From contig NJBI01000008.1 in NCBI GenBank assembly GCA_005222975.1, positions 1 to 64,000 of the forward strand: 64,000 bases of DNA, read 5' to 3'. Position 1 is the stretch's first letter. Each line of letters opens with the position of its first letter. Source of the stretch: Promethearchaeota archaeon Loki_b31. Lineage in GTDB: Archaea > Asgardarchaeota > Lokiarchaeia > Sigyniarchaeales > SOKP01. Shown in pieces: positions 763-59,314 of this stretch. The notes beneath the pieces were generated by a model. That model made no database searches. It had not been told where the DNA came from and saw only the letters and a list, made by a program, of their open reading frames with translations. The position numbers were made by a program, and so were the translations under genes.

Positions 763-829
763 AGTCCCGTTCTAATAAACGCATGTACATTGTTGGCACT
801 CCTGGAAACATAGCAGGGCTAGTTGCCTT

Positions 830-5430: not shown

Positions 5431-5494
5431 AAAAAAATTCCATTTTTTATATTTTTAATAGTAATGAAGTATTTAACTGCACTATACATAGTGA

Positions 5495-5854: not shown

Positions 5855-6256
5855 ATGTTAGATATTGTTTTAAAACAAGAAAATGGATATAGATGCATAG
5901 ATCTTGGTTTTACTAAATATAAATTATCAGATGAATTGGAAAAAATCAAAAAAATGAATAATAAAAGAATAATATTAGGCATTCGACCTGAAGATGTTTT
6001 AATATCAAAACAAAATGCTAGCAATTCAATTAAAGCAAAAATTGATATTATAGAGCCAATGGGGAGAGAATTTGAAATACATCTAGATTTAGGTTTAAAA
6101 ACATTAATTGCTGTTATTAGAAAAATTGAAAGTTTTAATATTGGTGACGAAGTTTATTTAACTTTTAATGATAAAAAAATTCATTTATTTGATAAAAATA
6201 CTGAAGAAAATATATTTGCATCAATATATAAAGATAAATCTAATTTTTTTTTTTGA
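5855..6256 (+). pseudogene. Second MalK-type C-terminal (TOBE) fragment
   Basis: LGIRPEDVL, IDIIEPMGREFEIHLD, GDEVYLTFNDKK; paralog of 1033-1418. Confidence 0.75.
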
Positions 6257-6510
6257 ATAAATTAAATTCAAATAAAAGAAATTTAGGGTAATTTTATAAA
6301 TGAATGAAGAATTATAAAGATTTTCAACGCTCTTCGTTTATAAAATCTTTCTACCCGCTTTTTTTTATCTTTCACCTCATTAACGCTAAGAATTCATTTG
6401 AGCATTTGAGATTTTTATCGGTCTTGAATTAATCACTATTGGCTGTAATGATTTGAGTTAGATCGTCCCATTCTTCATCCAAAAGATATTTAAGCCAAGT
6501 TTCATTATTA

Positions 6511-7848: not shown

Positions 7849-8060
7849 GAGAATAAAAAAAGGGGTTAATTTATAATAGTTAATTCGTTTATAAAATTAA
7901 CCGAAATTTAAGATATATTTTAATTTTAGTAATTTTAATTTTTTCGAACCTATATAACAATTAACTTTTAATAATTCCAAAAAATAAATTAAAATAATTG
8001 AATTTTAAGAGTATAGTTTAAAAAATCTATCCTTTGAATAATATTGATTAGGTAAATTAA

Positions 8061-8861
8061 ATGAAAATTCTAAGAATAATTGAAAAGAAGAAAATTCACC
8101 AAGCAGCAGAACTACTATTGAATTCTAAAGAAGCCATTGCTTTAACTGGGGCGGGAGTTTCTACGGAATCTGGAATTCCTGACTTTAGAGGGGAAGATGG
8201 CATTTGGAAGAAGTTTCCGATTGAAACGTTTGGTACATTGGAAAGTCTCCTAAAAAATCCCGCCAAATTCTGGGAGATGGCACAAAAAATTGCCCCAAAC
8301 TTATTCAAAGCAAAACCAAATCCAGGACATTGTGCTCTTGCAGAACTCGAGAAGATGGATTTAATTAAAGCTGTCATTACTCAAAATATTGATGAACTTC
8401 ATCAAAAAGCGGGCTCTATAATAGTTTATGAAGTACATGGAAGTATTAATAGATTTAATTGTTTAGGTTGTAAAGCCTCTTATACAAAAGAGCAAGTTTA
8501 TCGCAAATTGAAGAAAGAGAAAAAAACGGGGCCACAATGCGAATTTTGCGCAACTCCACTCAAACCTTCGGTTGTATTGTTTGGAGAAGGATTACCTAGA
8601 TTTGAAATATTCCAATCTCAAGCTTTAGCTAAAAAAGCAGATGTCATGTTAATTGTGGGATCCTCCCTCTCAGTTGCCCCTATATGCGATCTACCCCTCT
8701 ATACGCTAAGGGAAAAAGGAAAATTAATAATTGTAAATGACCAACCAACTCATTTGGATGAAAAAGCAGAGGTTGTAATTAACCACAAATCAGGCACTAT
8801 TTTACCTTTAATTGTGGAAGAAATTAAAAAATTAAAATCAGAACAAGAACCTATTGTATAA
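8061..8861 (+). CDS. cobB: NAD-dependent protein deacylase (sirtuin)
   Basis: LTGAGVSTESGIPDFRG, ITQNIDELH, HGS, CxxC..CxxC, GSSLSV. Confidence 0.95.
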   Translation: MKILRIIEKKKIHQAAELLLNSKEAIALTGAGVSTESGIPDFRGEDGIWKKFPIETFGTLESLLKNPAKFWEMAQKIAPNLFKAKPNPGHCALAELEKMDLIKAVITQNIDELHQKAGSIIVYEVHGSINRFNCLGCKASYTKEQVYRKLKKEKKTGPQCEFCATPLKPSVVLFGEGLPRFEIFQSQALAKKADVMLIVGSSLSVAPICDLPLYTLREKGKLIIVNDQPTHLDEKAEVVINHKSGTILPLIVEEIKKLKSEQEPIV

Positions 8862-8898
8862 TCTCATAAAGTTCTTAATTTTTTAAGAAGTTTTTTAT

Positions 8899-10476
8899 AT
8901 GTATGAAGAAAGCGTAATTATTAAAGATTGGAGAAATGTTGACTTCTCTTTTGGTCTAATATATCCAAACAATTATAAATTGGGAATGTCTTCCTATTCA
9001 ATCAGATTACTTTATCATTTAATTAACTCCAACGAAAGAGTTGTATGCGAGCGAATTTGCCTTCCTGAAAAAATAAAATTTCCAGCATCTAAAGATCTAT
9101 CTTCCATTGACCGCCTTCGAAGTATAGAAAATAAAGTTTTACCTAAAGATTTTGACATTTTAGGATTCTCAGTTCATTACGAAAACGATTATAGAAATAT
9201 TTTATGGATTTTAGACAAAGCCCATATCCCATTAGATGCAAAAAAACGTCACGATTCTTACTTTCGTAATATAATAAATTATCCTCTCATAATTGGTGGA
9301 GGGCCCACAGTAACTTCAAATCCTTTACCATTGAGTAAGGTTTTTGATCTCTTCTTTATCGGTGATGCAGAACCAAATCTTAATGTATTTTTTGATGTTT
9401 TCATGGATTACAAATTAAAAAAAATTAATTTTCAAGCATTTCTTAATCGGGTAAAAAATATAGAAGGTATTTTTATACCAGCTCTCGATAACAAAACAAA
9501 TCGAGCAGTTTTAAAAAATCTAGATGAATCTCCTACGCCACAATTTCAATTATTAGCTAAGAATGATAATACTAATAAGATATTTGAAGAAAACTATTTT
9601 ATTGAAGTTAATAGAGGTTGTCCGTATCAATGCAAATTTTGTTTATCTTCTTTCCACAATTCTCCGTTTAGAAATAAGAGTTATGAGGAGATAATTAAAA
9701 GCATTGAAGAAGGTATAAAATATTCAAATTTTAAAAAAATTAGTCTAATTGGATCGTGCATATCCTCCCATCCTAAATTTGTTGAAATATGCGAGTTTAT
9801 AATCAATAAAGGCAAGAACTTCAGCATCCCTTCAATTCGTTTAGAACATATCACGCCTAAAATCATTAAAATATTCGAAAAAAACGGTGTTAAAACGATT
9901 ACCATTGCTCCAGAAACGGGAACAGAATCGTTACGATACGACTTAGGAAAAAGAATATCTAACGAGAAGATTTTACAAGTTTTAAACCAAATTAAAGAAT
10001 CTAAGATAAAAAAAGTAAAATTTTATTTTCTAGTAGGATTGCCAAACGAAACCGATGATGATGTTTTAGAAATTATTAATCTTTTGAAATCCATTAAGAA
10101 AATTGGTTTTACGAGGAATGAACTTAAGGTTAATATTAATCCGTTTGTTCCTAAACTAAACACACCCTACGGAAATAAATGTCACTTTTATTTATCAAAT
10201 AATCTTAGTGATTTAAAAATGAAACTTAAAACATTAGAAGTAGCGTTAAAAAACATCGTCTCAATTAAATTTAAAAACCCAAAAAACATCGTTAATAACG
10301 CGAGATTACAGGCTTTAATATCGTTAGGAAATCGAAATGTATCCGAATTACTCCTACAATATTACTTTAATGGTGCTAATATGGGCGCTTTAAGAAGGGC
10401 TGAAAAAGATTTGAATTTTTCAATCGATAGCTATTTCCAAAAAGTCCAAGATGGTTATAAACCGTGGATAATCTAG
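8899..10476 (+). CDS. Radical SAM protein with N-terminal B12-binding-like domain
   Basis: YPNNYKLGMSS, IGGGP..NP.P, EVNRGCPYQCKFC, APETG. Confidence 0.88.
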   Translation: MYEESVIIKDWRNVDFSFGLIYPNNYKLGMSSYSIRLLYHLINSNERVVCERICLPEKIKFPASKDLSSIDRLRSIENKVLPKDFDILGFSVHYENDYRNILWILDKAHIPLDAKKRHDSYFRNIINYPLIIGGGPTVTSNPLPLSKVFDLFFIGDAEPNLNVFFDVFMDYKLKKINFQAFLNRVKNIEGIFIPALDNKTNRAVLKNLDESPTPQFQLLAKNDNTNKIFEENYFIEVNRGCPYQCKFCLSSFHNSPFRNKSYEEIIKSIEEGIKYSNFKKISLIGSCISSHPKFVEICEFIINKGKNFSIPSIRLEHITPKIIKIFEKNGVKTITIAPETGTESLRYDLGKRISNEKILQVLNQIKESKIKKVKFYFLVGLPNETDDDVLEIINLLKSIKKIGFTRNELKVNINPFVPKLNTPYGNKCHFYLSNNLSDLKMKLKTLEVALKNIVSIKFKNPKNIVNNARLQALISLGNRNVSELLLQYYFNGANMGALRRAEKDLNFSIDSYFQKVQDGYKPWII

Positions 10477-10507
10477 ATTACAAATAAAAAGAAAAATTAG
10501 ATTGGTT

Positions 10508-11023
10508 TTAATCGATTTTATTAAATACTTGTTTAGGAGATTTACAAACTGGGCATTGGTCTGGAGGTTCTCCTTCGTGCGTATACCCGCATACAGAGCA
10601 TACATATATTGGCCCATCTTCTAAATCTTTACCGTTTTCAACTACTTCTAAAGCTTTTTGATAAAGTTTATGATGTATTTTCTCCACATCGTTAGCAAAA
10701 TTAAAAGTTCTTTCTGCGCTTCTATTTTCTTCAGTTTTGGCATCGTTAATGAAATCAGGGTACATTTTTGTAAATTCGTAAAATTCACCCTCAATTGCTT
10801 CTTTTAAGTTTTCGGTAGTAGACTTGATACCTCCCATAGCACGCAAGTGGTTATGTGCGTGTACCGTTTCTGCATCCGCAGCAGCTCTAAATAAGTGCGC
10901 TACTCCTGGAAGTCCGTCTTGTTCTGCTTTTTTTGCAAAAGCTAGATACTTTCTATTGGCTTGAGATTCGCCCGCAAAAGCGGCTTTTAAATCTTCTTCT
11001 GATTTTGTCATATTTAAGTTCAC
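10508..11023 (-). CDS. rbr: Rubrerythrin
   Basis: AFAGESQANRKY, AETVHA, VEKIH, CSVCGY...CPVC. Confidence 0.95.
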   Translation of the reverse strand: MNLNMTKSEEDLKAAFAGESQANRKYLAFAKKAEQDGLPGVAHLFRAAADAETVHAHNHLRAMGGIKSTTENLKEAIEGEFYEFTKMYPDFINDAKTEENRSAERTFNFANDVEKIHHKLYQKALEVVENGKDLEDGPIYVCSVCGYTHEGEPPDQCPVCKSPKQVFNKID

Positions 11024-11165
11024 TCATTAAATTTTTATTGTGAATTATATTTCAGAATATTTTAAGTTTCATCTTATAATTAATAATCTTTTCTGAATCG
11101 CGAAATTTAGCAACAAATCATGAAAAGGCTAAAAATAGACCGATTAGAAACATGATTTTCTAATA

Positions 11166-11972
11166 CTAATCATTAAGAAAATTTATTATCTTCTTTATAA
11201 CTTTCTGTAAATAAAATTCTGCCATTCCAAATCTAATTTTGGCATCGAAGATAAGAATCAATATGTAAAGATCATTTATATTTTCAGAAAAAATTAGTTC
11301 GTTGTTTTTAGAGGTGTAAAACAATTTTAGAATAGTATTATTACAAATTTTCACTCTAAAATCGACCTCCTTTAAAAAATCTTTTATAATCGTCTTATTG
11401 AGAGAGGAAAAAATTAATTTACCTATATTAGTTAAAAGAATAGCGCCCTTAATGTCATCGTTTAAGTGGAGTTCTTTGAGTAAGCTAATAATTTCCTCTT
11501 CTTTGATTAAATCAAATTCGCTACTATAGGGTTCCCTTATAATGTCTTCGATGAGATAATTTAATTGTTCGTCATAGATATATTCTAAATCGGTTTGTAT
11601 ATCGTTTTTGATTACGTATTCTGAAAATTTAGAGTGGATTTTGGAAATTATTTCATCTAAAAGCTGCCAATTTTCGATCGTATTACACAGAAGGTTGTAG
11701 TATAAATTCTTTTTTTCAAAAACTACTAATTTTATACCTCCGCCCATTTCAACCGTTTTAATCTTATTTCCGATAAGCTCTTTAGTAAAGGACATTAGCG
11801 CTGTAAAGTATGAGGAGATTAATTGTTCTTGCTCTAAGGGGTACAAATTTGTAAGATTTAAGCCATAGATACATATACCAGATTTATTGAAGATGAATAA
11901 GTTATGTATATTCGTTTTATCAGATGTTCTTTTGATCTTTGAAACAATTACGGAATTGTCGGGAATACCCAT
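11166..11972 (-). CDS. Longin-like + roadblock-like two-domain protein
   Basis: IHNLFIFNKSGICIY...LISSYFTALMSFTKEL (longin pattern); IKGAILLTNIGKLIFSSL (roadblock pattern). Confidence 0.6.
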   Translation of the reverse strand: MGIPDNSVIVSKIKRTSDKTNIHNLFIFNKSGICIYGLNLTNLYPLEQEQLISSYFTALMSFTKELIGNKIKTVEMGGGIKLVVFEKKNLYYNLLCNTIENWQLLDEIISKIHSKFSEYVIKNDIQTDLEYIYDEQLNYLIEDIIREPYSSEFDLIKEEEIISLLKELHLNDDIKGAILLTNIGKLIFSSLNKTIIKDFLKEVDFRVKICNNTILKLFYTSKNNELIFSENINDLYILILIFDAKIRFGMAEFYLQKVIKKIINFLND

Positions 11973-25792: not shown

Positions 25793-25867
25793 GGGCCAAT
25801 GGTCTAGTGGTATGACATCTGCTTGACGTGCAGAAGGTCGGGAGTTCAATCCTCCCTTGGCCCACCA
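25793..25867 (+). tRNA. tRNA-Val(GAC), CCA encoded
   Basis: GGGCCAA/TTGGCCC acceptor stem, TCTGC-TTGACGT-GCAGA anticodon arm, GGGAG-TTCAATC-CTCCC T arm. Confidence 0.95.
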
Positions 25868-40408: not shown

Positions 40409-41674
40409 TTAGAATTTTTTGATGTTACTCTTTAAATAGAAAGATTCGAGATTATTTAACTTTTTTATCGATTCAGGCACATTATTTATTTTATTAAAGC
40501 TAAGGTTGAGCACTTTTAACCATTTAAGCCTCCCAATAGTTTCTGGAATAAGGTGTAAGTTTTGATCGATTAAAATTAATTCTTCTAGAAATTCTAAACT
40601 ACAAAGCTCTTTTGGAAACACACCAATTCGAGATTCTGTTGATAAATAAATAATTTTGGTGATATGCCCTACATTGTTTACTTCATAATGTACGGCTCCT
40701 TCAGAATCAATCTTTCCATCTCCTTGCATTTTCTTACATGTTAGCCCTGTTAGAATCTCTAATAAACCCAGGATATGAACTTCTGATTTTTTAACTCCCT
40801 CAAATATATACTTATGGACGTATTCGTTTTTGCTTGCAATCTCTACAACCCAGCTAGGTAAACTGTCTAACTGATTGTTGCTTAAAATTAATTTCTTAAG
40901 TGACAAAAGATTTGGGCACATATCTGGATATTTTTTTAGTTTACAATATGATATTTCCAAGAATTCTAATTTTGATAGCTTACAAATCGACGATGGAATT
41001 TCTTTAAGGCCTTTGAGAGACAAACTTAATATGAAACCTTTTTTGGCAGCTCTAACGCGACCTAGTCCTTTATACCCTATTTCGGTATTTTCTTTAATTA
41101 GTACTTGTTTAGCTTCGTCTGATAACTCAAACTTTTGTAAAAAATTCTTTAATTCGCTCCTAAATTTCCTATAATCTAAATAATCGATATCGAGAACAAA
41201 TTTTGAGTCTGCTGAGTTTAAGTTATAATAAGTTCTAATCTTTTTTAACGCTTTTTCTCGAATTTCTTCAAATTGAGGATACTCTTCTGTTTCAAATAAA
41301 TCTAATAGTTTTTTAAAGAAATATATAGATTTTTCATTTTGGATCGCCCATAATAAAGGTTCATGTTCCCGTGTTGGAAAGTTCTGGATCAATACTTTAG
41401 CTGCTTCAAATCTAACTAATGTAGACTCATCAGAAATTAAGCAATTTTCTATTATGTTAAAGGTTAGTTCGTCTTCAATCGATAATTTACCGATATATTC
41501 TAAGCTTGAATATCTAATAGCCTCATTATCACTTTTATTTATTAACGATTCGAAAAGCTTTAAGGCGTCCTTCTTTCCTACTTCGTTATTAAGTACTTTG
41601 AAATAAATTTTTTCAGGTGTTAATTGATCGCTCATTTTTACTTTATACTTTCTTTTACTACTTCGTGATGACAT
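40409..41674 (-). CDS. HEAT-like + leucine-rich-repeat protein
   Basis: CLISDES..VRFEAA; LxxLxLxxN repeats. Confidence 0.8.
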   Translation of the reverse strand: MSSRSSKRKYKVKMSDQLTPEKIYFKVLNNEVGKKDALKLFESLINKSDNEAIRYSSLEYIGKLSIEDELTFNIIENCLISDESTLVRFEAAKVLIQNFPTREHEPLLWAIQNEKSIYFFKKLLDLFETEEYPQFEEIREKALKKIRTYYNLNSADSKFVLDIDYLDYRKFRSELKNFLQKFELSDEAKQVLIKENTEIGYKGLGRVRAAKKGFILSLSLKGLKEIPSSICKLSKLEFLEISYCKLKKYPDMCPNLLSLKKLILSNNQLDSLPSWVVEIASKNEYVHKYIFEGVKKSEVHILGLLEILTGLTCKKMQGDGKIDSEGAVHYEVNNVGHITKIIYLSTESRIGVFPKELCSLEFLEELILIDQNLHLIPETIGRLKWLKVLNLSFNKINNVPESIKKLNNLESFYLKSNIKKF

Positions 41675-48202: not shown

Positions 48203-48422
48203 ATTTTAGTTTTTTTATAACTGTCTTAAAGTTAACGCTTATATTTGTTTATATTTATATAATTCTCATATCTGGTTGTGACACTTCAGCAAAATCTTAA
48301 AGTTAAGGAAATTCAAAAGCATAAAAAGCAGATGACGCTTCAGTAAATTGGCATATGCACGATATTTATATAATATAATTATTACTTTATTAATAGAAGT
48401 ATTAATGTGAATCCTTAATTTC

Positions 48423-49685
48423 ATGAAAGAATTTAAAATTAATAAGTTCTTAAAACTGCGGTTAGAGAACGATAAAACAAACATTTACGTAAAAGATCAA
48501 TTGTTTAGACAATGTAAATTTTTAATGATTAATATTGAACCTAATAACGCGTCTAATTTTGACGAAGTAACTTCTATAGACGAAGCAGAAAAAATATTAG
48601 ATAAATCGTTAGAAGAAAAAGAACTAGAAGAATTTGATATACGACCTGAGGAGGAGTTTTGGGCACATTGTTCAAACTTGGACGCGTGGGCAAAGCATCA
48701 ATACGATACTCGATTATTGCATAGAACTCTGGCATTTCCTATTTTAAGGGCTTTAACTGAAGCGGGAGATCAAGTAGCAAAAGCAGTATTTAAAGAAGAA
48801 ATTATAAAGAGATTCGAAAGCGGTCATCCAAATGTTGTTCGCTACCTAATTAGAGGAGGCTACATAAGAAAATATGCCAAAAAAGAACTGTTAGAAGCGT
48901 TTTTGGAAAGCAAGGAAGTCTCTATTCTAAAAAAGCTTCAGACTTTTTCTAAAACGGATATGGAAATCGCGGAAGAGATCGATATATTCTATGAGGAATC
49001 ACATTATACCGTAAAATTTGATAAAAATAAACTTAGTGGATTGGAGCTAAGAAGTCTTAACTTAAAGCAATTCCCAATAGAAATAACGGGATTAGTTTCT
49101 CTTAAAAAACTTTTCTTAGATTATAACGCGATACGATCATTACCAGGTGAAATCTGGCAATTAAAGAATCTACGAGAACTGAGTTTAGCAAGTAATTTAC
49201 TAGAAACGCTTCCTTCAGAGATTAGTTCGCTAAAATCTCTTGAATCTCTTTCTGTGAATCTTAATAAATTTAAAGTTTTTCCGGAGGCTTTAACGGAATT
49301 AAAGAATCTTAAATATTTAGGTTTAGCAATGAATCAAATCTGTGATATTCCTGAATCAATTGAAAACCTAAGAGATTTGAGAATTTTAGTTTTAAATCGT
49401 AACCGTATTTGCAGATTACCTGAGACTTTGGGAAATCTAAAATCTCTGGAGCTTTTACACTTGGGCAACAATAAAATAGATTTTATTCCCGAATCACTTG
49501 GTAAATTAAATTCTTTAAAAGAACTTGAAGTTCAATCTAATTATTTAACCATTCTTCCGGAATTTTTATTTAAGCTTAAGAATCTAAAAAGGCTTTATAT
49601 ATCAGACAATAATATTAATCATTTCCCAAACCTAAAAAAAAAGATTAATTCTTTAGAAGTGTTTAGTTACGACGAAAAAAAATGA
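48423..49685 (+). CDS. Leucine-rich-repeat protein with Lokiarchaeia-type N-terminal domain
   Basis: FWAHCSNL.AW...YDTRLLH N-terminal domain; about eight 23-aa LRRs. Confidence 0.88.
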   Translation: MKEFKINKFLKLRLENDKTNIYVKDQLFRQCKFLMINIEPNNASNFDEVTSIDEAEKILDKSLEEKELEEFDIRPEEEFWAHCSNLDAWAKHQYDTRLLHRTLAFPILRALTEAGDQVAKAVFKEEIIKRFESGHPNVVRYLIRGGYIRKYAKKELLEAFLESKEVSILKKLQTFSKTDMEIAEEIDIFYEESHYTVKFDKNKLSGLELRSLNLKQFPIEITGLVSLKKLFLDYNAIRSLPGEIWQLKNLRELSLASNLLETLPSEISSLKSLESLSVNLNKFKVFPEALTELKNLKYLGLAMNQICDIPESIENLRDLRILVLNRNRICRLPETLGNLKSLELLHLGNNKIDFIPESLGKLNSLKELEVQSNYLTILPEFLFKLKNLKRLYISDNNINHFPNLKKKINSLEVFSYDEKK

Positions 49686-49703: not shown

Positions 49704-52700
49704 TTACCACCAAGTTTTATAACTCTTTGGGAACATATAATCTGTTGGAATTAGTAAAAATTCTCTTCTTCTAACCCACTGTTTGATTAGGCCGAGATCA
49801 ATCTCAATCCCGCTTTCAAAACTAGCGATCTTTACTGGCATAAACATAGCCGAACCTATACCAGAGGAAAAGATTTCGTCGGGACCGTAAAATCTGTTAC
49901 GATCAAACGCGCCAATCATTTTATCGTATTCATAAATAGGTTTGCCGCCTAGATCGTCTTTAGCAATAACGAATAAGAAATCCTTTGAATAAGGACTTTT
50001 AGCTCTGGGCATAATAACACTCATTGATAGTTTAACAATGTGTTCTAATTTATTTTGGAGGTCGCTATCTTGCAAATCGATGTCAAAACATCTAGCGTCT
50101 TTTTTATTAGTACCAGATATTGTATGCCTTTCAGATGGAACAAGCTTTTCCCATATTTCCGTCCTCAAGAGGAACTGATAACCAACAATCTGATTTGGCC
50201 TATAAAGAGGATAAATTTTTACCTTACCATTTTTTCCCACAGCGCTTTCGATTGCTTTCTTTAAAATTTGCGCCTTTTCTTTAACTATGCCGTAATTATA
50301 TCCTTGAAAATCAAAATCTTGAAATTGATAATGGACATCCTCTCCTTTAATGAAAATCCTCCAAATTTTTATGTCTTTACCAACAAAGTCGTCCTTATTG
50401 AGCCAAATTTCAACTGGTATACCGTTAAATTCGACCTTAAAGAATTTAATTTTTTTATTATACTTATCTCCAATAATAAGATCTTCAATTTGAACTCTAA
50501 GATTGTATTTTGAGCCATCTTGACAAAAAATACTCTCTCTATGATAGTTTAAAAGTTCTCTTTCGGCAGAGATTAGAAGCCTATTATAAAGGTCAATTTG
50601 CTCGTCTTTCTTTAAACTTAAAGTCTGCACTTTAGTTCTTAAAACGACCTTTAAAGCATCCAGCATTTCCAGCCCAGATTCAACGAATAATTTTATTCGC
50701 CTGTGAGTAGCCAAGCCTGCGTAGTTATTATCTTTGTAATTTTTATATAGACCTTTGAACTGTGATGCAATATCCGAGTCGAAAGATTTTGAACTAGTGG
50801 AGATAAATGAATCGTCTATAAATGAGATAGGAGAATATCCAAAACGAATAATGGCATTTTGTATATCAATCTTTCTCTCTACTGGCAAAACCATGTGCGA
50901 ATCCAAAAAGAACAACGAAAATAAATGCTTATATATGTTACTATCACTAAGAATGGGGGTGGGCTTAGTTTGCGTTGAGGTTATAATTGAAAATTGTTTG
51001 AGATACTTTGAGATATCAAACTTGCTTGGCAAGTTTAAAATATCAATCTTGTAAGATTTAGGACTTCCGTAAAAATCAATCATGTGCATGAAAAGTAGCC
51101 TTAATGTGAAATGTCCGAACAATCGAGATACAACTTCAAACGCGATCTTTCCGGCTTTTATTTCTTCGGGCGAAAAAGCTTCTTTCTTATCGGCACTGAT
51201 ATCAAAAGGGTTTTCCGAATACTTGTTGGTAAAAGATGTTTTTGCTTCTTTTATTAGTTCGCTAACTCTATCGGTTTCCGAATCTCCTTGGTAACTCGTG
51301 ACCTTCTCGAACAACATGTGGAACCATTCCTTTATCGTGAGGTCGCCTTCTTTCATAGGTCTGATTTCGCCGCTGTATTCTTTAAGGAACAAGAAGTCTA
51401 AGATGTCGTTTTTAGTGACAAATAGTTTGTTAATTACTCCTTCAACATCGCTTTTACTTCTTAACGATGACATATCAATTCTCCCGGTAGATGGGGTAAA
51501 TCTTACATTGAACAATCCTAACTTATCGGCAATGTAAGTGTTGGCGTACGATCTTTTAGTTGAAGTGCCTTCTTCTGTTGCTAAAATGTACCTTAAGTCG
51601 ATTAAGTTTAGATAAGTCTTAAAAAATGTGTCTGAAGTAATTAACTTACCCGAGACTATAGGTGTAAAAACAAGACCATCTTTGAACTTTTTCATTGACT
51701 TTCTTGTTAAAGATGGAAATAATTTCGTTATATGAGGATAAGGCTCGAGATTACCTTCAGCTCTCTGTAAAAAGGCGAGACAATGAGTTTCCGCTCCTAA
51801 TAAAATTCCTGAACTTACAGTAAAAGCAAAGTAGTAATTTGATTGGTGAGTGTTTGCATCGACTTTAATGAAGTTAGCGTACCATCCTTCAGGCCGCACG
51901 TTTATTATAATTTCGCTTCCCTCTTTGAATATGTTAACGCGGCTGTTTAAACGAACGTAGTTGGTGTCGCATAAATAAACGTTGCGAAAGACTTTTTCTT
52001 TATTCTGATCGTTTTCCATGTGCTTATATCCCTCAGAAAACCCTTGAGGTAAAATGTTTACGATCTCTGCGGGAATAACTCCAAATGTCGGTAGAGTCTT
52101 ATATTCACCGTCGACATCATTGCTACGATGGGAGACAAGAAGCGGCTTACCTTCGCTTTTATATTGGTTGAATAATTCTTGAGTTAATAGTGTAGGAGTC
52201 AATTTACCATTTACTTTAATGAAAGTGAAAGCTTGAGGTAAATCTTCGAATCTTAAAACCGTGCCTTGCTCGTCCAGGAATAGAAGGTCTATCTGCTCGC
52301 TCAACGCTAACTTATAATGTCCTAAGTTATCTGTATCTTCTTGTATTAGACTATCAATCTCATTCTCTAACCAAGTTAACGTATTTTCAAGATAATTAGA
52401 ACCTTCGAGAAGACTAAATCTATCCTCAGAATATACATTACTGGCGCTTTCCCTAAAAATATTATATAATTCTCCTTCAAATTGAGGATTTGCAAGCATA
52501 TTCTTGATATCTTGAACAATCTTGCTTTTATCATCAGAACTGGTAAGTATTGTATGAAATAATTGATTTAATTCTTGAATTGTTGAAAAAGTGTAAGTTA
52601 AATCACCTACCATCTTATGATCTGAACCTTTTCCGTAATCAAGAAACTTGTTTGCCGCTGCCATTCTTCTCATAAGACTTATTAACGTATTATCAATATC

Positions 52701-54512
52701 GCCTTTTTGGGGTACACATCCAGCAAAAAATCTGAAATTCTTTATATCTTTCAACTGGGTGACTCCTCTTGATAATTCATAGAAGAGACTATGAATGTGA
52801 ACAGAGCCAAAATCGTCTTTTAACTGATTTAGCGTACCGCTACTTATGCCATCAGGATCAGAAGTGGCTTTAATCTCTGTTGCAATATAGGTAGTTGGAG
52901 AGATAATTAACTTTATATCGTTGAACCTAGACATAGAAGGGAATAACGAGGAAAATGGTCTTATGTCTTTACCTATGATTAGATTTTTTAAATCGTATAA
53001 ATCGTTCAAATTAGAGCCCGCTAATGAATCTAAATTCTCTTGAATGTAAACATTTCCATCTAACCAACCTCCTGCTCCGAAATTAATTCCGCTTAAAAAG
53101 GCTTCAGGAGACTGGAAACCATCTTTGATAAATTGTTCAACAACTCTTATAATAAATCCGCTAGAATAATCTATAGTTTCACCAATTCTACCAATAAATG
53201 TCTTTGGGTTTTTAGCTATCGAAAGCCCTGGAACTCTAGTGCTATCAAAAAAGGCTTCTGTAAATTTATACCAAAATGCAGTTATGCCAACAGGTCCTAG
53301 GAACAGTCTTGCTACCTTTTTAACGGAATCTTGATTATCAAGGAATTTCTCAATCTCTTTGATTGCTGTATGAATGTCAGCAGAATCGAGATCGAGACCT
53401 AATATATCTTTAGTTATGTATTCGATAATTGCAGACTCTCCTTGCCGAATAATAGTGTCTTTTAATTTAAACGAGCTCGTTGCGCTCAATACAGTTAATG
53501 GAATTGCGTTCTTTATCATTTTAGATGTCTTCAACCAACTATCCCACCTCTCGTTATTCACATCTTCGTCTTGAGAAGTCTTAATAAGAGTTTCTATGTA
53601 ACTATTCTGCCACAATGTATCGTGAAAACTCGATAAATACTTGTCAACAAAAGCTGTTTTGTCTAACTGACTATTTCTAACAGTATAAATGTCTTTGTTA
53701 TCGGTTATTCTTAGAAGGCTTTCTCTGTTTAATTCCATAATAAAGGAGGAGAAAGCGTCCATAATTTCAATCTCTTCAAGAGTACCACACATTTCATCAA
53801 AACGAAAATCACCAGCAAATTCATGCGAATGCCTTAACCTTATTGCCCTATAAGCGTCAAATTCAGCAAATTGAGAAAGTCTCTGTATTTCATATGCGAC
53901 AGACAAACCGGGCAAACTTGATATTTGAGCAAGTAAGGTATCTTTATTAATAGTAACTTCGCCTTGCTTATCTTCGCTAAACACGTAAGGAGAAACGATT
54001 CTTGTGCCTTCCGTAAGAAACCCAAACTTGGAAGTATAAAACCTTAACTCCATTTTTGAATCTAAACCGAAATTTAGCTTAATAATATCGATTGCGTCCC
54101 ACATTTTAAAAGTTTCTCCATCAAATGGAGGCAAATTAAACTCTGAAATATCTCTGTCCCAACCTTTAACATCTTTTGAAAATTTCCGCAATATATCTCC
54201 ACTGAGTGATTCCATTAAAATTGAAATTTGTCCCGCAGCTTTACCCCCATAAGCAACTGCTTCAACTACCTTTGAGTTTTCTAACCGCGCCAAATCGTTT
54301 TCCTTCTGTCTTGCTGCTTCATATAGTTCTTGAGTCTGTGTTTTATATTTTAATAATCCCATTTGAGCCTCAAGATTAGCAACGCTTTGAGCGGGATCGT
54401 AAGTAATAGTTGAAGTAATGGGACCGTAATATTTAGCGTTTACTAAGTATTCAACTGCTTGTCCAGAAGAGCTTATGCCGTAGATCGATCGAATGGTGGC
54501 GCTATCGAACAA
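49704..54512 (-). CDS. C-terminal part of a giant hypothetical protein
   Basis: 1602-aa ORF in frame with the upstream ORF across one TAA; no recognisable domain. Confidence 0.75.
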   Translation of the reverse strand: MFDSATIRSIYGISSSGQAVEYLVNAKYYGPITSTITYDPAQSVANLEAQMGLLKYKTQTQELYEAARQKENDLARLENSKVVEAVAYGGKAAGQISILMESLSGDILRKFSKDVKGWDRDISEFNLPPFDGETFKMWDAIDIIKLNFGLDSKMELRFYTSKFGFLTEGTRIVSPYVFSEDKQGEVTINKDTLLAQISSLPGLSVAYEIQRLSQFAEFDAYRAIRLRHSHEFAGDFRFDEMCGTLEEIEIMDAFSSFIMELNRESLLRITDNKDIYTVRNSQLDKTAFVDKYLSSFHDTLWQNSYIETLIKTSQDEDVNNERWDSWLKTSKMIKNAIPLTVLSATSSFKLKDTIIRQGESAIIEYITKDILGLDLDSADIHTAIKEIEKFLDNQDSVKKVARLFLGPVGITAFWYKFTEAFFDSTRVPGLSIAKNPKTFIGRIGETIDYSSGFIIRVVEQFIKDGFQSPEAFLSGINFGAGGWLDGNVYIQENLDSLAGSNLNDLYDLKNLIIGKDIRPFSSLFPSMSRFNDIKLIISPTTYIATEIKATSDPDGISSGTLNQLKDDFGSVHIHSLFYELSRGVTQLKDIKNFRFFAGCVPQKGDIDNTLISLMRRMAAANKFLDYGKGSDHKMVGDLTYTFSTIQELNQLFHTILTSSDDKSKIVQDIKNMLANPQFEGELYNIFRESASNVYSEDRFSLLEGSNYLENTLTWLENEIDSLIQEDTDNLGHYKLALSEQIDLLFLDEQGTVLRFEDLPQAFTFIKVNGKLTPTLLTQELFNQYKSEGKPLLVSHRSNDVDGEYKTLPTFGVIPAEIVNILPQGFSEGYKHMENDQNKEKVFRNVYLCDTNYVRLNSRVNIFKEGSEIIINVRPEGWYANFIKVDANTHQSNYYFAFTVSSGILLGAETHCLAFLQRAEGNLEPYPHITKLFPSLTRKSMKKFKDGLVFTPIVSGKLITSDTFFKTYLNLIDLRYILATEEGTSTKRSYANTYIADKLGLFNVRFTPSTGRIDMSSLRSKSDVEGVINKLFVTKNDILDFLFLKEYSGEIRPMKEGDLTIKEWFHMLFEKVTSYQGDSETDRVSELIKEAKTSFTNKYSENPFDISADKKEAFSPEEIKAGKIAFEVVSRLFGHFTLRLLFMHMIDFYGSPKSYKIDILNLPSKFDISKYLKQFSIITSTQTKPTPILSDSNIYKHLFSLFFLDSHMVLPVERKIDIQNAIIRFGYSPISFIDDSFISTSSKSFDSDIASQFKGLYKNYKDNNYAGLATHRRIKLFVESGLEMLDALKVVLRTKVQTLSLKKDEQIDLYNRLLISAERELLNYHRESIFCQDGSKYNLRVQIEDLIIGDKYNKKIKFFKVEFNGIPVEIWLNKDDFVGKDIKIWRIFIKGEDVHYQFQDFDFQGYNYGIVKEKAQILKKAIESAVGKNGKVKIYPLYRPNQIVGYQFLLRTEIWEKLVPSERHTISGTNKKDARCFDIDLQDSDLQNKLEHIVKLSMSVIMPRAKSPYSKDFLFVIAKDDLGGKPIYEYDKMIGAFDRNRFYGPDEIFSSGIGSAMFMPVKIASFESGIEIDLGLIKQWVRRREFLLIPTDYMFPKSYKTWW

Positions 54513-54530
54513 GCTCTTAAGCTCGGCGTC

Positions 54531-57500
54531 TTATCCTAAACCTTTCTTAACGCCTGGTAATTTATCGATCTTAATATCCTTCGATATCATGTCTTGCCTT
54601 GCGTTGCTAATAGCCGCGCGCATCATGGTGGTCGTACCCGCTTTCGGACTCGTAATTTTTTGGCCCAAGTGTTTGATCATAGGGCTAAATCCGTACAAAC
54701 TAAAACCCGCAAAACTAAGTCCTGGAACTAACAGCGAAAGCCCCGCGAAAACGCCCGAACCGATAATTCCCGCCATCTTCAATATTGTCTCGTGCCTACT
54801 TGGAACTAAATCGAGGTTAGACATTATCGACCTTATATCTTTTCTGTTCTCTCTTAGAAACTTTTCCAAGGTAAACGATTGGTCGCTATCTCGTTCCGCG
54901 ATAAGTTGTGATAGTTCGGTAGTTAAAGCGCTGTGTTGTAATTCTTGCTCTATCTGTGTCATTATATCAACGTCAAAAGATATGCCCCCTTGCGTGTCGG
55001 TGCCTAGACCTCCTAGATTGAACGCGCCGAACATTTTAGTTTCCCGAACCGTGGTCATAAGCGTAGAAATTAGCTGTCCTACTCCTTCAGACCAGCCCAA
55101 CATACGAGCCGAGTTTTCGAAGTAGGCCTCGATGAAACCGTCTACTACGATTTCTTCGAACACTTCCCCTATAGTCTGAGCAACGATTTTAACGCTCATA
55201 GAAGCCATTTGAACCGCAACTTTAGTCAATAACGACGACCCTATTTGAGCGCTCGCCTCAATAGCCCCTTGAGCTAAAATCTTTTGAATAGAAACGGCGG
55301 CTCCAGCAAGCGCAACAATAGGCGCTGAACGCGAAGTAGATTGGAAAGTTAAAATCTCGGTGTAAGCGATCTCCCCGATTATTTTAGCCGTAGTCGCCGC
55401 AAAAACGTATTGATCGAAATAATCTAAGATAGGATACATCGTAGCTTGAGCTAAGAGAGTTCTTTGGTTCTCTTCCGAAAGATTGCCGTCGTCAGGTATT
55501 ATCTTAGCAAATTTAACCTGACACACGTAATAATATTCCGTCCCTTCGTCGTAGTTGGAGGCTGAATCGCCCATAAGCTCGTCTATTGGGCGCGCAAAAT
55601 AAAGGTTTTGCAATTTTTCGGGAATCTCGTAATCAGAAGCGTCTAAAGTTTTAGAAGTTACCTCTTTATTTACTACCTTGTGTAGAATTACGCTTTCGAT
55701 TGGGTAATTAAACGCCCCATACAAGTCAGCTAACGGTATTTTTGCGGAATAAAACTCTTTCTCCTCGTCTAAAAGGTCGGTCGAATCGATACCTTTCGTG
55801 TTTGACGCCCCAAAAGAGGCGATGTCCACGAAGAGATAACCAAATTTTCTGGACTCGCTAAGTTGGTCGTATCTTTGGGAACTTATTATCAACGGACTGA
55901 AAAGCGAAGATAAAGGCGCTGTATCGTCTTCTTGAGCGAATAGATATTGAGGAGTTGCGTCCGAACAGATCGGTTTTATAGAATTGAGAGAACCTCCAGT
56001 TTTTTCGTTAATTTCGTGCTGTAAGTAGCCGAGGGTGTTTTGTCTTAACTTGTAAGAATTGTAGTTCTGAATGATTCTTAGAACCATTTGAGGACCCGTT
56101 TTATAATATTTCATCGGTGCGGAAAAGAAAGTGGGCTCGTAGACCTCGTAAATAGGTTCTAATTCTAACATTTTATCGACTAAATCTGGGTCTTCGAAGT
56201 AGGTGTAGTGTTTTTGGTCGTTGTACGAATAAAGCTCGCTCGAGACCATTAAAAAGTCTAAATTGTGGTAATCGAAGTCTAGTCCAGCCATTATATCGGG
56301 ATTTACATCTTGCGGTAAGGTGTTTGTCCACTTTAGATCGATATTAGACCAGATAAAATCTAAAAAGCCCGTGTTAGAGCCTCTCCAACAACGAGCGTCG
56401 CTTGGAGGGGCGGCAACAACGTAGGCGAGGTATTCGTTTCCGGTTTGACCGCCTCGAACTTCAGCGTAATAAGTTCCGGGGTGACCACTTAACGCAGCAG
56501 GCATGCTATCGCTCCAAATGTCGTCCGTAGGATATTTTTTATTGAGAATTCTTGGTTGATTGTTATTGGCGTCTTCTGAGTAAAAAGTTTGCGAGCGCAA
56601 CTTTGCTTCTGCCTCGCGGGCTTTCACGTCGTTAGTAATTAAACTTAGCGAAGTATATATAGCAAAATACACGGGCAATGCCACCAGATCAGTAAAGATT
56701 CTCGCTAAAGCCGCAGCCACTCCCGCAATTATAGAAATAGTAACTTGCTCGGTTAAATCGCGTTCGTATCGTTCGCCAAATATCTTCCAAACTTTATTGA
56801 ATTCTTTATGGCGGGTCTCGTAGAAAAGCTCGGAAAATCTGGCGTTTTGAGCACTTGTTGTGATTAACTTTCTTATTTCAAATACGTTGTCTTTGAGCTC
56901 GTATCCGTCGCGCTCGTCTTCTGGGAACAAACGGTCGCTCCTTCCTAATTTTGCAAACTCAAATATATTTCCTTCCGTTTGATGGAACTCGTGAGATAAT
57001 ACGTCTCTAAATTCGTTTAAATTTTCTATAGGCCAACCAGTTTCGGTTCTAGAATACGGAATAAAATCGTGTTTACCGTCGTAATTAAATCCAATAGCCA
57101 TAACTTCGTAGTAAGCATCGTCTCCCTCGCCCTTTACTGGAGAAAGCACGTAAACCGTTTCCCAAAATCCGTTTTCATCGCTATCGTAATAGAGATAATG
57201 ACCGTTGGTTTTGGCTGCCTTCCCACCGTTGCGCTTGAAAGATTCCTTATCGGAAGTATAGTAAACTTTGCCATCAGCGGGGGTAATAAAAACGCCTGTT
57301 ATTTTCAATTTCATGTCGGAAGTGCTCGAGGTCTTTAACGAGACAACTTTCTTATAGTCGTCGTAAGGGTTAATTCTACTAGGAATAACTATGTTTATTT
57401 CTCGCTCGAACAGATTAATATTTTCGCTAGAAGAAGTTTCCGAATTTACTATAGTTAAAGACTCAAACTTACTTGGAACGTTAGAACCGTCGTCCCATTT

Positions 57501-59039
57501 GTCGTATTCTTCGGTTTGAACTGCGGGGATAAAATCAAGTGGAACGTCTTGCTGTTGCCCCGTTTCGAGACTAGTTATGGTTTGGCTAAGGTCGATTCCT
57601 AAGTCGATCGTCTCGTCTTCAAACAAATCCTTATACACTCTGATTTCTATTAGCGTGCCGTTATCCCAGTGATTTACGGTAATTTGTTCGCTTATTTGAT
57701 TATCAACGTAAAGTTTTGTAGTTATTATCGAATATTTCTTGTAAGTTTGAGTTAGAGTTTCTCGAATATCCGAGGCGAGCCAGTGGTAACTACTTGGATA
57801 AGATCCGCTTTCGATCATTTCAGGAGTGAGCTTCTCGTTAAAAATAGGATCAACCCTTCCTCCTGAAATTAAAGACCCTATCCACTCAGCCATGCTAGCG
57901 TATATGTAAGTAATCGCGTTCTGAGGTTTTGCCGCTAAAATAGTGGTTTCGCTGTTTGTAACGCGTGTATATTGAACGGTATCTGTTTTTTCGTATGTAT
58001 ATTGAATATCGGCGGCTCCATCGTAATCTTCGTCTACCATAACAGAATAAAACGAACTTTGAATGGAATAATCGGTAGAATAAGTTTGCTCGACGCTTTT
58101 TCTGGCCCAATAATCTATATCTGTAAAGATAATCGTAGATAACGAAGTTGAGGTAGCAAACTGGGCATCGTCTACATCAAACCATTTAGTAGTCTCTCTT
58201 GGTCTTGATTTTAAGTTGTAGAGAGATTCGCTTCCTAAAAAGTCGTTTATGACCGTGTGCCAAACGATCTCGTTAGAATCTACGTCAGATTCAACACCAA
58301 ATCTTATAACATCGATTTTACCGTTCTTATCTACGTCAATCACATGTTTAAAGTCTCTTTTACCGTCCATATCTGAATCAGCTTCGTATATAACGTTATA
58401 AGGGTCTAAATAAAGCTCAAAATTGTCAAATAAAGCAGAAGAAATGTATCCCTTAAGGGTTTTATTAGAGCTTAGTTCAGAATTTCGGGTGTAATCAATT
58501 GAAGTAAACGAAGTACTATCAGAAGCTATTGTCTCAGCGCGCTCTACAAATAAATAATCGCCCGCATTTACCGAATATTCGAAAGAACCCGACAAGTAAT
58601 CGTAAAACGAATTTTCTAAGTCGGCTAAATTACTCTGGTTGAAAGAGTCCGATAAATACAATTTAGTTTTTGTCGACACAGGTCCGTGTGTAAAGTTTAA
58701 AACGACCGTAATAGCGTCAAATTCGTTTAATAAACCATCAGTTGAGATTAAGTCTGTTATAGTAATTGTTTTAGCAGAAATATCAAAATTCACGCTATAA
58801 TTGGTGTTATCGTCGTCGATAAATTTTTCTGAAAAGTTAGCGTAAAGTCCAACGATTCTAAACAACGAGAGATTTAAGAAGTCTTTATCGAAATCGTATT
58901 CGAGTTCAAAAGAGTAAATATATTCGTCGGTCTCGGTATAAACAACGAAGTTTTCGGAGTAGAATTGCTCGATCTCGTAGTCATAGTTGCTATTTTCTAT
59001 TAATTCTCCGTACCATTCTTCGAACCTAGGAGTTAACAA
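54531..59039 (-). CDS. Middle part of a giant extracellular/membrane protein (5'-truncated), with Ca-binding-like DxDxDG loops and hydrophobic helices
   Basis: DSDMDGKRD, DVDKNGKID, DEDYDGAAD, DSDENG; three hydrophobic regions; the frame stays open upstream to ~59132 with no start codon or signal peptide. Confidence 0.8.
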   Translation of the reverse strand: MLTPRFEEWYGELIENSNYDYEIEQFYSENFVVYTETDEYIYSFELEYDFDKDFLNLSLFRIVGLYANFSEKFIDDDNTNYSVNFDISAKTITITDLISTDGLLNEFDAITVVLNFTHGPVSTKTKLYLSDSFNQSNLADLENSFYDYLSGSFEYSVNAGDYLFVERAETIASDSTSFTSIDYTRNSELSSNKTLKGYISSALFDNFELYLDPYNVIYEADSDMDGKRDFKHVIDVDKNGKIDVIRFGVESDVDSNEIVWHTVINDFLGSESLYNLKSRPRETTKWFDVDDAQFATSTSLSTIIFTDIDYWARKSVEQTYSTDYSIQSSFYSVMVDEDYDGAADIQYTYEKTDTVQYTRVTNSETTILAAKPQNAITYIYASMAEWIGSLISGGRVDPIFNEKLTPEMIESGSYPSSYHWLASDIRETLTQTYKKYSIITTKLYVDNQISEQITVNHWDNGTLIEIRVYKDLFEDETIDLGIDLSQTITSLETGQQQDVPLDFIPAVQTEEYDKWDDGSNVPSKFESLTIVNSETSSSENINLFEREINIVIPSRINPYDDYKKVVSLKTSSTSDMKLKITGVFITPADGKVYYTSDKESFKRNGGKAAKTNGHYLYYDSDENGFWETVYVLSPVKGEGDDAYYEVMAIGFNYDGKHDFIPYSRTETGWPIENLNEFRDVLSHEFHQTEGNIFEFAKLGRSDRLFPEDERDGYELKDNVFEIRKLITTSAQNARFSELFYETRHKEFNKVWKIFGERYERDLTEQVTISIIAGVAAALARIFTDLVALPVYFAIYTSLSLITNDVKAREAEAKLRSQTFYSEDANNNQPRILNKKYPTDDIWSDSMPAALSGHPGTYYAEVRGGQTGNEYLAYVVAAPPSDARCWRGSNTGFLDFIWSNIDLKWTNTLPQDVNPDIMAGLDFDYHNLDFLMVSSELYSYNDQKHYTYFEDPDLVDKMLELEPIYEVYEPTFFSAPMKYYKTGPQMVLRIIQNYNSYKLRQNTLGYLQHEINEKTGGSLNSIKPICSDATPQYLFAQEDDTAPLSSLFSPLIISSQRYDQLSESRKFGYLFVDIASFGASNTKGIDSTDLLDEEKEFYSAKIPLADLYGAFNYPIESVILHKVVNKEVTSKTLDASDYEIPEKLQNLYFARPIDELMGDSASNYDEGTEYYYVCQVKFAKIIPDDGNLSEENQRTLLAQATMYPILDYFDQYVFAATTAKIIGEIAYTEILTFQSTSRSAPIVALAGAAVSIQKILAQGAIEASAQIGSSLLTKVAVQMASMSVKIVAQTIGEVFEEIVVDGFIEAYFENSARMLGWSEGVGQLISTLMTTVRETKMFGAFNLGGLGTDTQGGISFDVDIMTQIEQELQHSALTTELSQLIAERDSDQSFTLEKFLRENRKDIRSIMSNLDLVPSRHETILKMAGIIGSGVFAGLSLLVPGLSFAGFSLYGFSPMIKHLGQKITSPKAGTTTMMRAAISNARQDMISKDIKIDKLPGVKKGLG

Positions 59040-59092
59040 GTAATCGTAATTATATATTAATTCGAAAGATTCAAAGTTTGCGTTCTCGTATT

Positions 59093-59314
59093 TTAAATCG
59101 ATTCCTCTGGGTAGCCTTCGTATCGAAAGATTTCAATTAGTTTTTCTTCTACAATCTTTTTTTTCCTTTCTTGGATTTGTTCTGTATCGCCTTCTTTTAA
59201 AATGTTTCGGATAGAAGGATACGAGATTCCTTCTAATCTTGCTATGTCTTTTTTGCTTACTCCCTTATTATATAGTTCTAATATTTTCGCTTTTTTTTCT
59301 TCGGAAATTGTCAT
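59093..59314 (-). CDS. HTH DNA-binding protein, probably 3'-truncated
   Basis: ILELYNKGVSKKDIARLEGISYPSIRNIL. Confidence 0.75.
   Translation of the reverse strand: MTISEEKKAKILELYNKGVSKKDIARLEGISYPSIRNILKEGDTEQIQERKKKIVEEKLIEIFRYEGYPEESI

Follow-up and report, generated by a model that had tools for sequence, protein, structure and literature searches.

The window, a stretch of 64,000 nucleotides from the genome of Promethearchaeota archaeon Loki_b31, carries on its minus strand the remains of a gene far larger than either of the two long open reading frames (ORFs) that mark its place. As judged from sequence comparison, these ORFs are one gene, split by a single-letter nonsense change (CAA to TAA relative to the closest relative), and they are the 3'-terminal ~3,140 codons, or last fifth, of a membrane-protein gene of ~13,900 codons whose 5' end is missing. 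We consider it rather probable that this copy, a single ancestral giant-gene frame that was cut at its 5' end and recently hit by a nonsense change, is an orphan cassette of a polymorphic effector/partner system.

One frame interrupted by a single stop codon

The upstream ORF (P0001; 54531..59039, minus strand, 1502 aa) and the downstream ORF (49704..54512, minus strand, 1602 aa) share one minus-strand frame, and the junction between them reads GGA TAA GAC GCC GAG CTT AAG AGC TTG (G*DAELKSL), letter for letter as the initial annotation had given it. The 3,111 codons of the joint frame hold a single stop, against 165–287 in each of the other five frames, so an opening of this length is far from chance. 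The in-frame TAA (54531..54533, minus strand) is CAA (Gln) in the closest relative (L019/P0005), within an otherwise identical GGA-xAA-GAC-GCC context. All homologues found that cover the position read through it, namely the 13,906-aa open frame of a genome of the same genus (G008), P0134 (2,244 aa, from NCBI Loki_b32), P0004, P0005, P0007, P0011, P0013, and P0023. The proposal of one split gene thus holds up: single homologues are continuous across the stop, and none is split at its position. Recoding of the stop codon was rejected, as TAA is a normal terminator in the host genome, where it ends 75% of long ORFs.

The window copy has dN/dS values of 0.125 and 0.20 and no frameshifts, so that any decay must be very recent; the initial description of the gene as now decaying is right about the damage done by the stop and has to be restricted to that recent time. 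The TAA itself could be an artefact of assembly or a minor allele, in which case most cells would read CAA or another sense codon and the ~3,140-codon frame would be uninterrupted. A single transition separates the window from its nearest relative, the 3,111 codons contain no other defect and have a low dN/dS, and the source assembly is a metagenome-assembled genome (MAG) of 99 contigs with 6% contamination, all of which would fit such an artefact. We nevertheless regard it as unlikely, because short-read assemblies rarely carry consensus base errors and because in-frame stops in further copies of the family (G258:C146, G214:C64, and G224:C108) indicate that such breaks are common in it. The 5' truncation, moreover, would remain even if the TAA were false.

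The 3' end of a far larger gene

The window pair is colinear with residues 10753–13904 of the G008 giant, a single tblastn HSP joining these residues to positions 59102–49707 of the window's contig (C14) and bridging the stop. The initial estimate of ~3,100 codons or more was correct in assigning both ORFs to one giant gene and too low in its extent, as they form only the 3' fifth of ~13,900 codons. The conserved trunk remnant (P0001 plus 21 upstream codons; 54534..59102, minus strand) corresponds to G008 residues 10753–12309 at 74–76% identity. Residues 1–10752 of the G008 giant have no match anywhere in the window's genome by tblastn; the full-length form, with its N-terminal cluster of transmembrane (TM) helices and ~10,000-aa body carrying Laminin_G_3, was not found there, and this 92%-complete assembly holds no full-length giant as a partner for recombination with the cassette.

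The homology begins abruptly and exactly at position 59102, the upper coordinate given in the initial annotation, which is an ATC codon and no start, 10 codons after a stop and beneath the end of a small helix-turn-helix (HTH) gene. The last codons of that gene, an HTH_23 ORF of 73 aa with a transposase/resolvase-type HTH (59096..59314, minus strand), overlap the onset of homology and so mark the scar of the 5' truncation. The idea that this ORF is part of a repeated insertion sequence was discarded, since the genome contains no second copy and none accompanies the other cut copies of the giant gene. The trunk remnant has no ATG, its first canonical start being the TTG at 59039, and no signal peptide or anchor was found ahead of the ~770 acidic residues of the upstream half. 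For want of such a signal or anchor before this acidic N-terminal part, the window copy is probably not translated into a functional surface protein.

These observations bear on the possibility that the split is functional: trunk fragment and tail would both be produced, translation of the tail restarting at TTG 54512, and the two would act jointly or separately in the absence of the giant body. Each half is intact and evolves under purifying selection, the TTG lies only 6 codons past the stop, and public collections list the two ORFs as separate proteins. Proteins of ~2,250 aa (P0134 and P0004) also begin at one shared point elsewhere in the family, and some short forms may on this account be real genes. 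In the window, however, no Shine-Dalgarno-like sequence precedes TTG 54512, the upstream half lacks an ATG, signal peptide, or anchor before 770 acidic residues whose presumed place in the full protein is outside the membrane, and the homology starts 10 codons past a stop under the end of another gene. As every covering homologue reads through the stop and none is split there, we judge a working split form quite improbable.

Architecture of the conserved trunk

The acidic, beta-rich region with DxDxDG loops noted in the initial annotation is confirmed (57168..58379, minus strand): it contains four DxDxDG calcium-loop motifs, at P0001 residues 221, 235, 336, and 619, where shuffled sequences would give 0.1, and all four are kept in the G008 giant. 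Asp and Glu together amount to 33–36 per 200 aa over the first 800 residues of P0001. Three hydrophobic Gly/Ala-rich regions were likewise found as described, at residues 770–801, 1238–1259, and 1425–1460. The first (56637..56732, minus strand), with ~32 residues and a central Pro, probably forms a hairpin in the membrane or one long TM helix.

The module that defines the family (P0001 residues 940–1502; 54534..56222, minus strand) consists of a beta domain (~1010–1185), two helices of 73 and 45 residues, and a second hydrophobic hairpin (1425–1460, ...IIGSGVFAGLSLLVPGLSFAGFSLYGF...; 54660..54767, minus strand), with which conservation ends ahead of the variable tail. A structure model of the module, built from a 70-sequence alignment, has a pLDDT of 67.7, with the beta domain modelled confidently, and its Foldseek matches in the PDB, Atlas, and viral libraries and VIA-wide were only generic helical hairpins or beta sandwiches. 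Pfam and NCBIfam gave no domain on the trunk, PDB sequence searches returned nothing useful, and the protein Atlas had nothing for either half. The earlier suggestion that the giant gene's product is membrane-inserting is supported.

A variable tail with a linked partner gene

Beyond the stop lies a variable, mosaic C-terminal tail (P0002, 1,608 aa plus stop; 49704..54530, minus strand), the ~1600-aa orphan region of the initial annotation. Searches of Pfam, NCBIfam, PDB sequences, and Atlas gave nothing for P0002, and only two similar proteins of comparable length occur among 5.8 billion clusters. Within ~100 aa of the stop, identity to G008 falls from 70–88% to 12–30%. P0002 shares 38% identity with the G008 tail, 78% with a metagenome fragment (L020), and 28–30% with P0134; its middle is the variable part, while its end is 50–68% conserved with G008. 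A model of residues 800–1608 (pLDDT 45.5, with only residues ~1413–1590 confident) gave no fold match, a negative that says little at so low a model confidence. Pfam searches of P0002 and 18 other tails of the family found no toxin or enzyme domain, the sub-threshold hits among the 18 being EAD1 and Ago_PAZ_arc only.

Facing the tail is a convergent gene (48423..49685, plus strand) that the initial annotation had missed. It encodes a 420-aa cytoplasmic protein in which a conserved N-terminal domain of ~170 aa (EFWxHCSNL...YDTR) is followed by leucine-rich repeats (LRRs). An LRR gene adjoins the tail in the window, in G008:C23, in L019, in L020–L026, and in 10 of 15 further giants, and in most window-like loci it is convergent and not co-transcribed. 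The partner type tracks the tail type (5 of 5 window-like tails carry the same type, and 2 of 2 type B tails have a partner of their own), and the N-terminal domain is common only to loci with window-like tails, although this agreement is weaker evidence than it appears, because adjacent genes are co-inherited. Extra partner paralogues are also present in the family.

The same facts admit a reading in which the protein is no weapon. The giant could be an adhesin or a protein for recognition between cells, in which the variable, cytoplasmic tail would serve as docking site for an LRR adaptor of matching type, with a role in signalling, in coupling to the cytoskeleton, or in recognising kin; the copy in the window would then be a dead fragment. 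Consistent with this, none of the 19 tails has a toxin domain, tails reach the great length of 1,900 aa, the window tail varies in its middle and keeps a conserved end, the LRR-based partner is a cytoplasmic protein with its own transcription, and the full-length form combines a Laminin_G_3 domain with calcium loops. Against it stand the replacement of tails by unrelated ones, the stand-alone 5'-cut cassettes, and the extra partner paralogues, which are the signature of a conflict system, though recognition systems show it too. We take an adhesin or recognition protein to be less likely than the effector/partner reading.

A variable island without the tested aloposon features

The window copy lies at the edge of an island of at least 51 kb whose site is empty in four relatives (G017, G008, G002, and G018); the gene that comes next at the site in these four is found on contig C65 in the window's genome. 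At the left edge (48203..48422), the 98% identity to the closest relative, G017, ends at 48202; the edge falls within an ordinary spacer between genes, which measures 94 bp in G017. No direct repeats were seen at the island edges and no tRNA at the boundary, the only tRNA in the window being Val-GAC at 25793–25867, 24 kb from the gene across core genes. Upstream of the gene, the 73-aa HTH_23 ORF is followed by divergent small ORFs, and Pfam and NCBIfam gave no ParA/MinD there. A core chromosomal location with two separate genes, which would have told against the initial annotation, is therefore not what is found: the context is variable and the homologues are continuous.

The initial assignment to an integrated element is supported as far as the variable island is concerned; its link to aloposons is not. 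An aloposon comprises two distinct giant genes in tandem, Otus and Ephialtes, of 3,000–6,000 aa each, integrates at a tRNA gene downstream of them, and has upstream of them a run of four genes, one of which encodes a MinD/ParA-like ATPase; fragmented copies are reported as well (Wu et al., 2022, PMC8813620, the last in the legend to Extended Data Fig. 7). The window resembles them in having a very large orphan gene in variable or mobile Asgard DNA with fragmented copies, and a ParB_N gene ~6 kb upstream of the full-length copy in G008 recalls the ParB-like proteins that aloposons are reported to encode (PMC11529989). Compared by described features, however, none of the three tested (tandem gene pair, tRNA integration, and four-gene ParA/MinD set) is present in the window: there is one gene, core genes intervene before the only tRNA, and the upstream set is absent. 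The taxon differs too, the module being nearly confined to one Lokiarchaeia-type family and aloposons being defined in Heimdallarchaeum. That the two ORFs are the tandem giant genes of such a transposon is accordingly very improbable.

Family distribution and comparison with known systems

A profile of the module (from alignment A2) matches the window at G000:C14:54651-56105 (E = 6.5e-136), 54 of the 134 genomes of the family to which the window's genome belongs, and, elsewhere in the phylum, only 4 genomes from other families; the module has relatives in 131 clusters of a 1.8-billion-protein library. On the distribution of these matches, the giant-gene family is confined almost entirely to one Lokiarchaeia-type family. 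Frames that bear the module are 11,241–20,619 aa long. The homology of all giants to P0001 stops at residues 1467–1494, the conserved-to-variable boundary, and the tails beyond it are of unrelated or mosaic types. Copies cut at the 5' end are common and have differing break points, as in the window, G017:C66, G002:C50, L019, and P0134/P0004; in G019:C185 and in G214:C64 a cut copy lies downstream of a full giant.

Apart from entries for giant Lokiarchaeota proteins in catalogues, we found no paper describing this gene family. One such catalogue includes archaeal 'huge proteins' with a single N-terminal Laminin_G_3; it counts 12 huge proteins in Lokiarchaeota and notes that what they do is not understood (PMC11573180). 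The full-length G008 relative has exactly this architecture, with one Laminin_G_3 at residues ~1824–1969 of 13,906 and no other Pfam domain; the window copy lacks that region, and the catalogue gives no account of a junction module, of tails being swapped, of LRR partners, or of cut copies.

The layout is that of the orphan cassettes of bacterial polymorphic toxin systems (cdiA-CT/cdiI, rhs-CT/rhsI), in which Imm-LRR immunity proteins and standalone cassettes are listed features (Zhang et al., 2012, PMC3482391). As in those systems, the window family has a long trunk that is conserved up to a sharp boundary, C-terminal tails past it that are unrelated to one another, a candidate partner gene beside each tail that varies with it and is of LRR type, recombination mosaics, and 5'-truncated stand-alone copies made of a trunk piece, a tail, and a partner. 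Unlike them, it is found in an archaeal host for which no secretion route is known, its partner gene often lies convergent to the tail, neither its trunk nor its junction module shows a detectable relation to FHA, Rhs, LXG, or MafB, and its tails, of 570–1,900 aa and putative toxicity, contain no recognisable toxin domain. Pfam and NCBIfam gave no delivery apparatus or delivery-associated trunk domain (T5SS, T6SS, T7SS, or similar) on the trunk, and the full-length relative has only its Laminin_G_3.

Proposed origin and significance

We suggest that the full giant would be anchored in the membrane and would display a huge TM-free body, presumably outside the cell, although the count of 6–8 TM helices is ambiguous and this placement accordingly tentative. 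Near the C-terminus, the beta domain, long helices, and two hydrophobic hairpins would precede a tail of 570–1,900 aa. Recombination may exchange tails between unrelated and mosaic types, each type travelling with a matching cytoplasmic LRR protein that putatively binds or neutralises it, which would make the family a polymorphic system of effectors and partners, comparable to CdiA-CT/CdiI or Rhs. Against this reading count the lack of toxin domains in the tails, the lack of fold matches for module and tail, the convergent partner gene of most window-like loci, and the absence of a full-length giant from this assembly. In the window, a rearrangement would have cut the 5' end, removing ~650 N-terminal residues, the 6–8 TM helix cluster, and the ~10,000-aa TM-free body, and a later, recent CAA-to-TAA change would have struck 8–35 residues past the conserved-to-variable boundary. 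The copy would be a stand-alone 'orphan' cassette of trunk fragment, tail, and partner.

More tentatively, this Lokiarchaeia-type family may use membrane proteins of 11,000–20,000 residues as contact-dependent effectors or recognition devices, with tails of 0.6–1.9k aa swapped in from silent 5'-cut cassettes. The window tail and its partner, with the 'EFWxHCSNL' domain and LRRs, might then be a wholly new effector/immunity or self-recognition pair without bacterial counterpart.

For annotation, the consequence is that two public 'hypothetical proteins' should become one pseudogene or cassette. The window offers a clean case, and one that can be dated, of a cassette that was cut and has only just been broken; it adds a tail type without a nuclease-like domain, and evidence that the N-terminal domain of the LRR partner follows the tail type. 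If our proposal is correct, very large cell-surface systems for intercellular conflict or recognition exist in Asgard archaea, which of all prokaryotes are most closely related to eukaryotes; these systems use parts without described relatives and diversify by cassette exchange. Such systems would bear on how archaea living in tight syntrophic contact with partners discriminate among their neighbours.

One gene with an in-frame stop

The ORFs at 54531..59039 (1502 aa, P0001) and 49704..54512 (1602 aa), both on the minus strand, share one reading frame, as the initial annotation had stated, and meet at the junction GGA TAA GAC GCC GAG CTT AAG AGC TTG. The shared frame holds one stop in 3,111 codons, and the remaining five frames hold 165–287 each. 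The nearest relative, P0005 (77–81% identical), reads KKGLGQDAELKS at this position, and the DNA differs by a single C-to-T change: GGA CAA GAC GCC in the relative, GGA TAA GAC GCC in the window. A 1,200-residue query across the stop, searched against 1.84 billion representative proteins, found 131 relatives. P0004, P0005, P0007, P0011, P0013, and P0023 cross the junction position as single proteins, and an NCBI protein from 'Promethearchaeota archaeon Loki_b32' (P0134, 2,244 aa) gives one continuous alignment to residues 955–3142 of the read-through sequence. Because none of the homologues found is split at the junction, the family is not consistently a pair of genes in core context, and the proposal of one gene is upheld. 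Recoding of the stop codon was considered and is ruled out, because TAA terminates 75% of the long ORFs in this genome.

The protein features described earlier were also recovered. Four DxDxDG loops were found versus 0.1 expected by chance, the first 800 residues of P0001 are strongly acidic, hydrophobic Gly/Ala-rich segments lie at 770–801, 1238–1259, and 1425–1460, and the second half (P0002, the tail; 1608 aa when read from directly behind the stop) is an orphan that matched nothing in Pfam, NCBIfam, PDB sequences, or the Atlas. Antisense to the conserved trunk lies a 210-aa ORF (54493–55125, plus strand) that shares 67% identity with its counterpart frame in the related genome G008; most likely it is a side effect of the coding strand being conserved and richer in GC, and not a gene.

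The remnant of a far larger gene

The suggested size of about 3,100 codons or more is too low, as the pair is the 3′ end of a far larger gene. In G008, of the same genus, an open frame of 13,906 aa occupies positions 9282–50999 of contig C23. A tblastn search of the whole window genome with this protein gave one HSP, which matches residues 10753–13904 to contig C14 (the window's contig) 59102–49707 at 53.7% identity and passes straight over the stop; residues 1–10752 had no tblastn match anywhere in this 92%-complete MAG. By hydropathy, the G008 giant would consist of about 650 N-terminal residues, 6–8 TM helices at 652–886, and then some 10,600 TM-free residues, after which, toward the C-terminus, come both hydrophobic segments kept in the window copy. 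Its sole Pfam match is Laminin_G_3 at about 1824–1969, and it agrees with the 'huge proteins' catalogued in archaea, which carry a single N-terminal Laminin_G_3 and whose function is not understood (PMC11573180). The gene's upstream neighbors (40–3112, locus piece L015) are plasmid- or element-like: a weak primase-like ORF, a ParB_N protein, a wHTH protein, and several small ORFs in a row.

A profile of the conserved module (P0001 940–1502), searched against 400 genomes of the phylum, matched 59 genomes, among them 54 of the 134 that belong to the window's own family and four from other families. In many genomes the open frame that houses the module runs to 11,241–20,619 aa; the module also occurs in many frames of 1,000–3,500 aa, several with in-frame stops. 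The longest frame seen in this analysis, 20,619 aa, carries it at about 141384–142694 of G235:C13, and the same genome family contains at least 15 frames of 11,000–15,000 aa.

The window copy is cut at its 5′ end. Homology to G008 begins ten codons past an in-frame stop, with the ATC codon at 59102, and the upstream DNA shows no nucleotide- or protein-level similarity. The stop end of a 73-aa ORF with an HTH_23/transposase-type helix-turn-helix (59314..59096, minus strand, E = 5e-7) overlaps this exact point; no second copy of the ORF exists in the genome or beside other cut copies. No canonical start precedes the TTG at 59039, and Met first occurs at residue 224. As neither a signal peptide nor an anchor precedes the 770 acidic residues, the copy could scarcely be produced as a functional surface protein, judging from its sequence. 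Cut copies occur often, and their break points differ (the window, G017:C66, G002:C50, and the metagenomic locus L019). P0134 and P0004 have one common start point. At G019:C185 and G214:C64, a full giant is followed a few kilobases downstream by a cut copy that has a tail and LRR gene of its own. The L019 remnant (3465–11623) is shorter: a 294-aa ORF holds the last ~135 trunk and 70 tail residues, followed in another frame by a 1,146–1,215-aa tail, 24% identical to that of the window, and then by a convergent LRR partner.

Variable tails, an LRR partner, and a genomic island

In every giant, homology to P0001 stops at residues 1467–1494, just past the second hydrophobic hairpin, and around the window's stop identity to G008 falls from 70–88% to 12–30% across about 100 residues. 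The tails beyond this boundary, 566–1,875 aa long, are unrelated between groups and mosaic within them. The window tail is 14–30% identical to that of G008 at residues 100–900 and 50–68% at 1000–1608, with the opposite pattern versus the metagenomic orthologue L020. GC3 also steps at the trunk/tail junction, from 0.41 in the trunk part to 0.32 in the tail, compared with 0.26 ± 0.05 (SD) for long ORFs of the genome; over most of the G008 giant it is 0.35–0.41. The giant genes as a set (window 49707–59102 and locus pieces L015–L017) show GC3 of 0.35–0.41 against a long-ORF mean of 0.26 (SD 0.05).

An LRR-protein gene directly follows the tail in the window (48423..49685, plus strand), at G008:C23, L019, and L020–L026, and in 10 of 15 further giants. 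The window partner has no signal peptide or TM segment. Its ~170-aa N-terminal domain (EFWxHCSNL...YDTR...LAFP) recurs in the partner at every one of the five loci whose tails resemble the window's. Partners of the two type-B tails form a separate pair, 66% identical, and other loci are alike in the LRRs only. This co-variation is seen through adjacency and is confounded by linkage. Three further paralogues of the domain (34–49% identity) lie in the window genome at C24 16954–17451 (minus), C67 44753–45220 (plus), and C97 25678–26172 (plus), with no junction module beside them, and could be partner genes that stand alone. The genome is rich in LRR genes; one in core context 7 kb away (40409–41674, minus strand), with weak HEAT matches, has C-terminal repeats that resemble those of the partner.

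The partner gene and the giant-gene remnant are the first two genes of an island of at least 51 kb, comprising C14 48203 to its end (87167) and C65 34942–47319. It is recognized because 98% identity to G017, the closest relative, ends at 48202 and resumes at C65 ~34941, across a 94-bp spacer in G017, and because the core order is unbroken in G017, G008, G002, and G018, where a phosphorylase and a 172-aa gene lead directly to the genes found here on C65; all four lack the island at this site. Neither a flanking direct repeat nor a tRNA was seen at its edges.

What the family may be

The initial annotation had related the giant to aloposons, which are defined, besides homology to Otus/Ephialtes, by tandem separate giant genes, a tRNA integration site, and four upstream genes with ParA/MinD (PMC8813620). 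The relationship is not borne out, as none of the latter three features was found. Given the ParB_N gene and weak primase-like match near the full-length G008 copy, the giants may ride on mobile DNA, without thereby being aloposons.

The family does share the defining combination of bacterial polymorphic toxin systems, namely a sharp-edged conserved trunk, swappable unrelated tails, a neighboring partner that varies along with the tail, and cut cassettes standing alone, and Imm-LRR partners are on record in those systems (PMC3482391). Pfam searches of P0002 and 18 other tails recovered no toxin or enzyme domain, however, and AlphaFold models gave no fold match. A giant adhesin or recognition protein, combining a variable tail in the cytoplasm with an LRR adaptor, is therefore a serious rival, and a weapon mechanism for the family is suggested only tentatively. 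As to identity, we favor, with some reservation, a polymorphic effector/partner cassette, currently inactive, for the window copy.

For the trunk versus G008, dN/dS is 0.125; for the tail versus L020 it is 0.20, and 0.14–0.16 in the least diverged part (dS ~0.3). These low values and the absence of frameshifts in the window copy indicate that purifying selection acted for most of the time since divergence. Two readings follow: the cut and the nonsense change happened recently, or such cassettes are maintained intact through occasional use.
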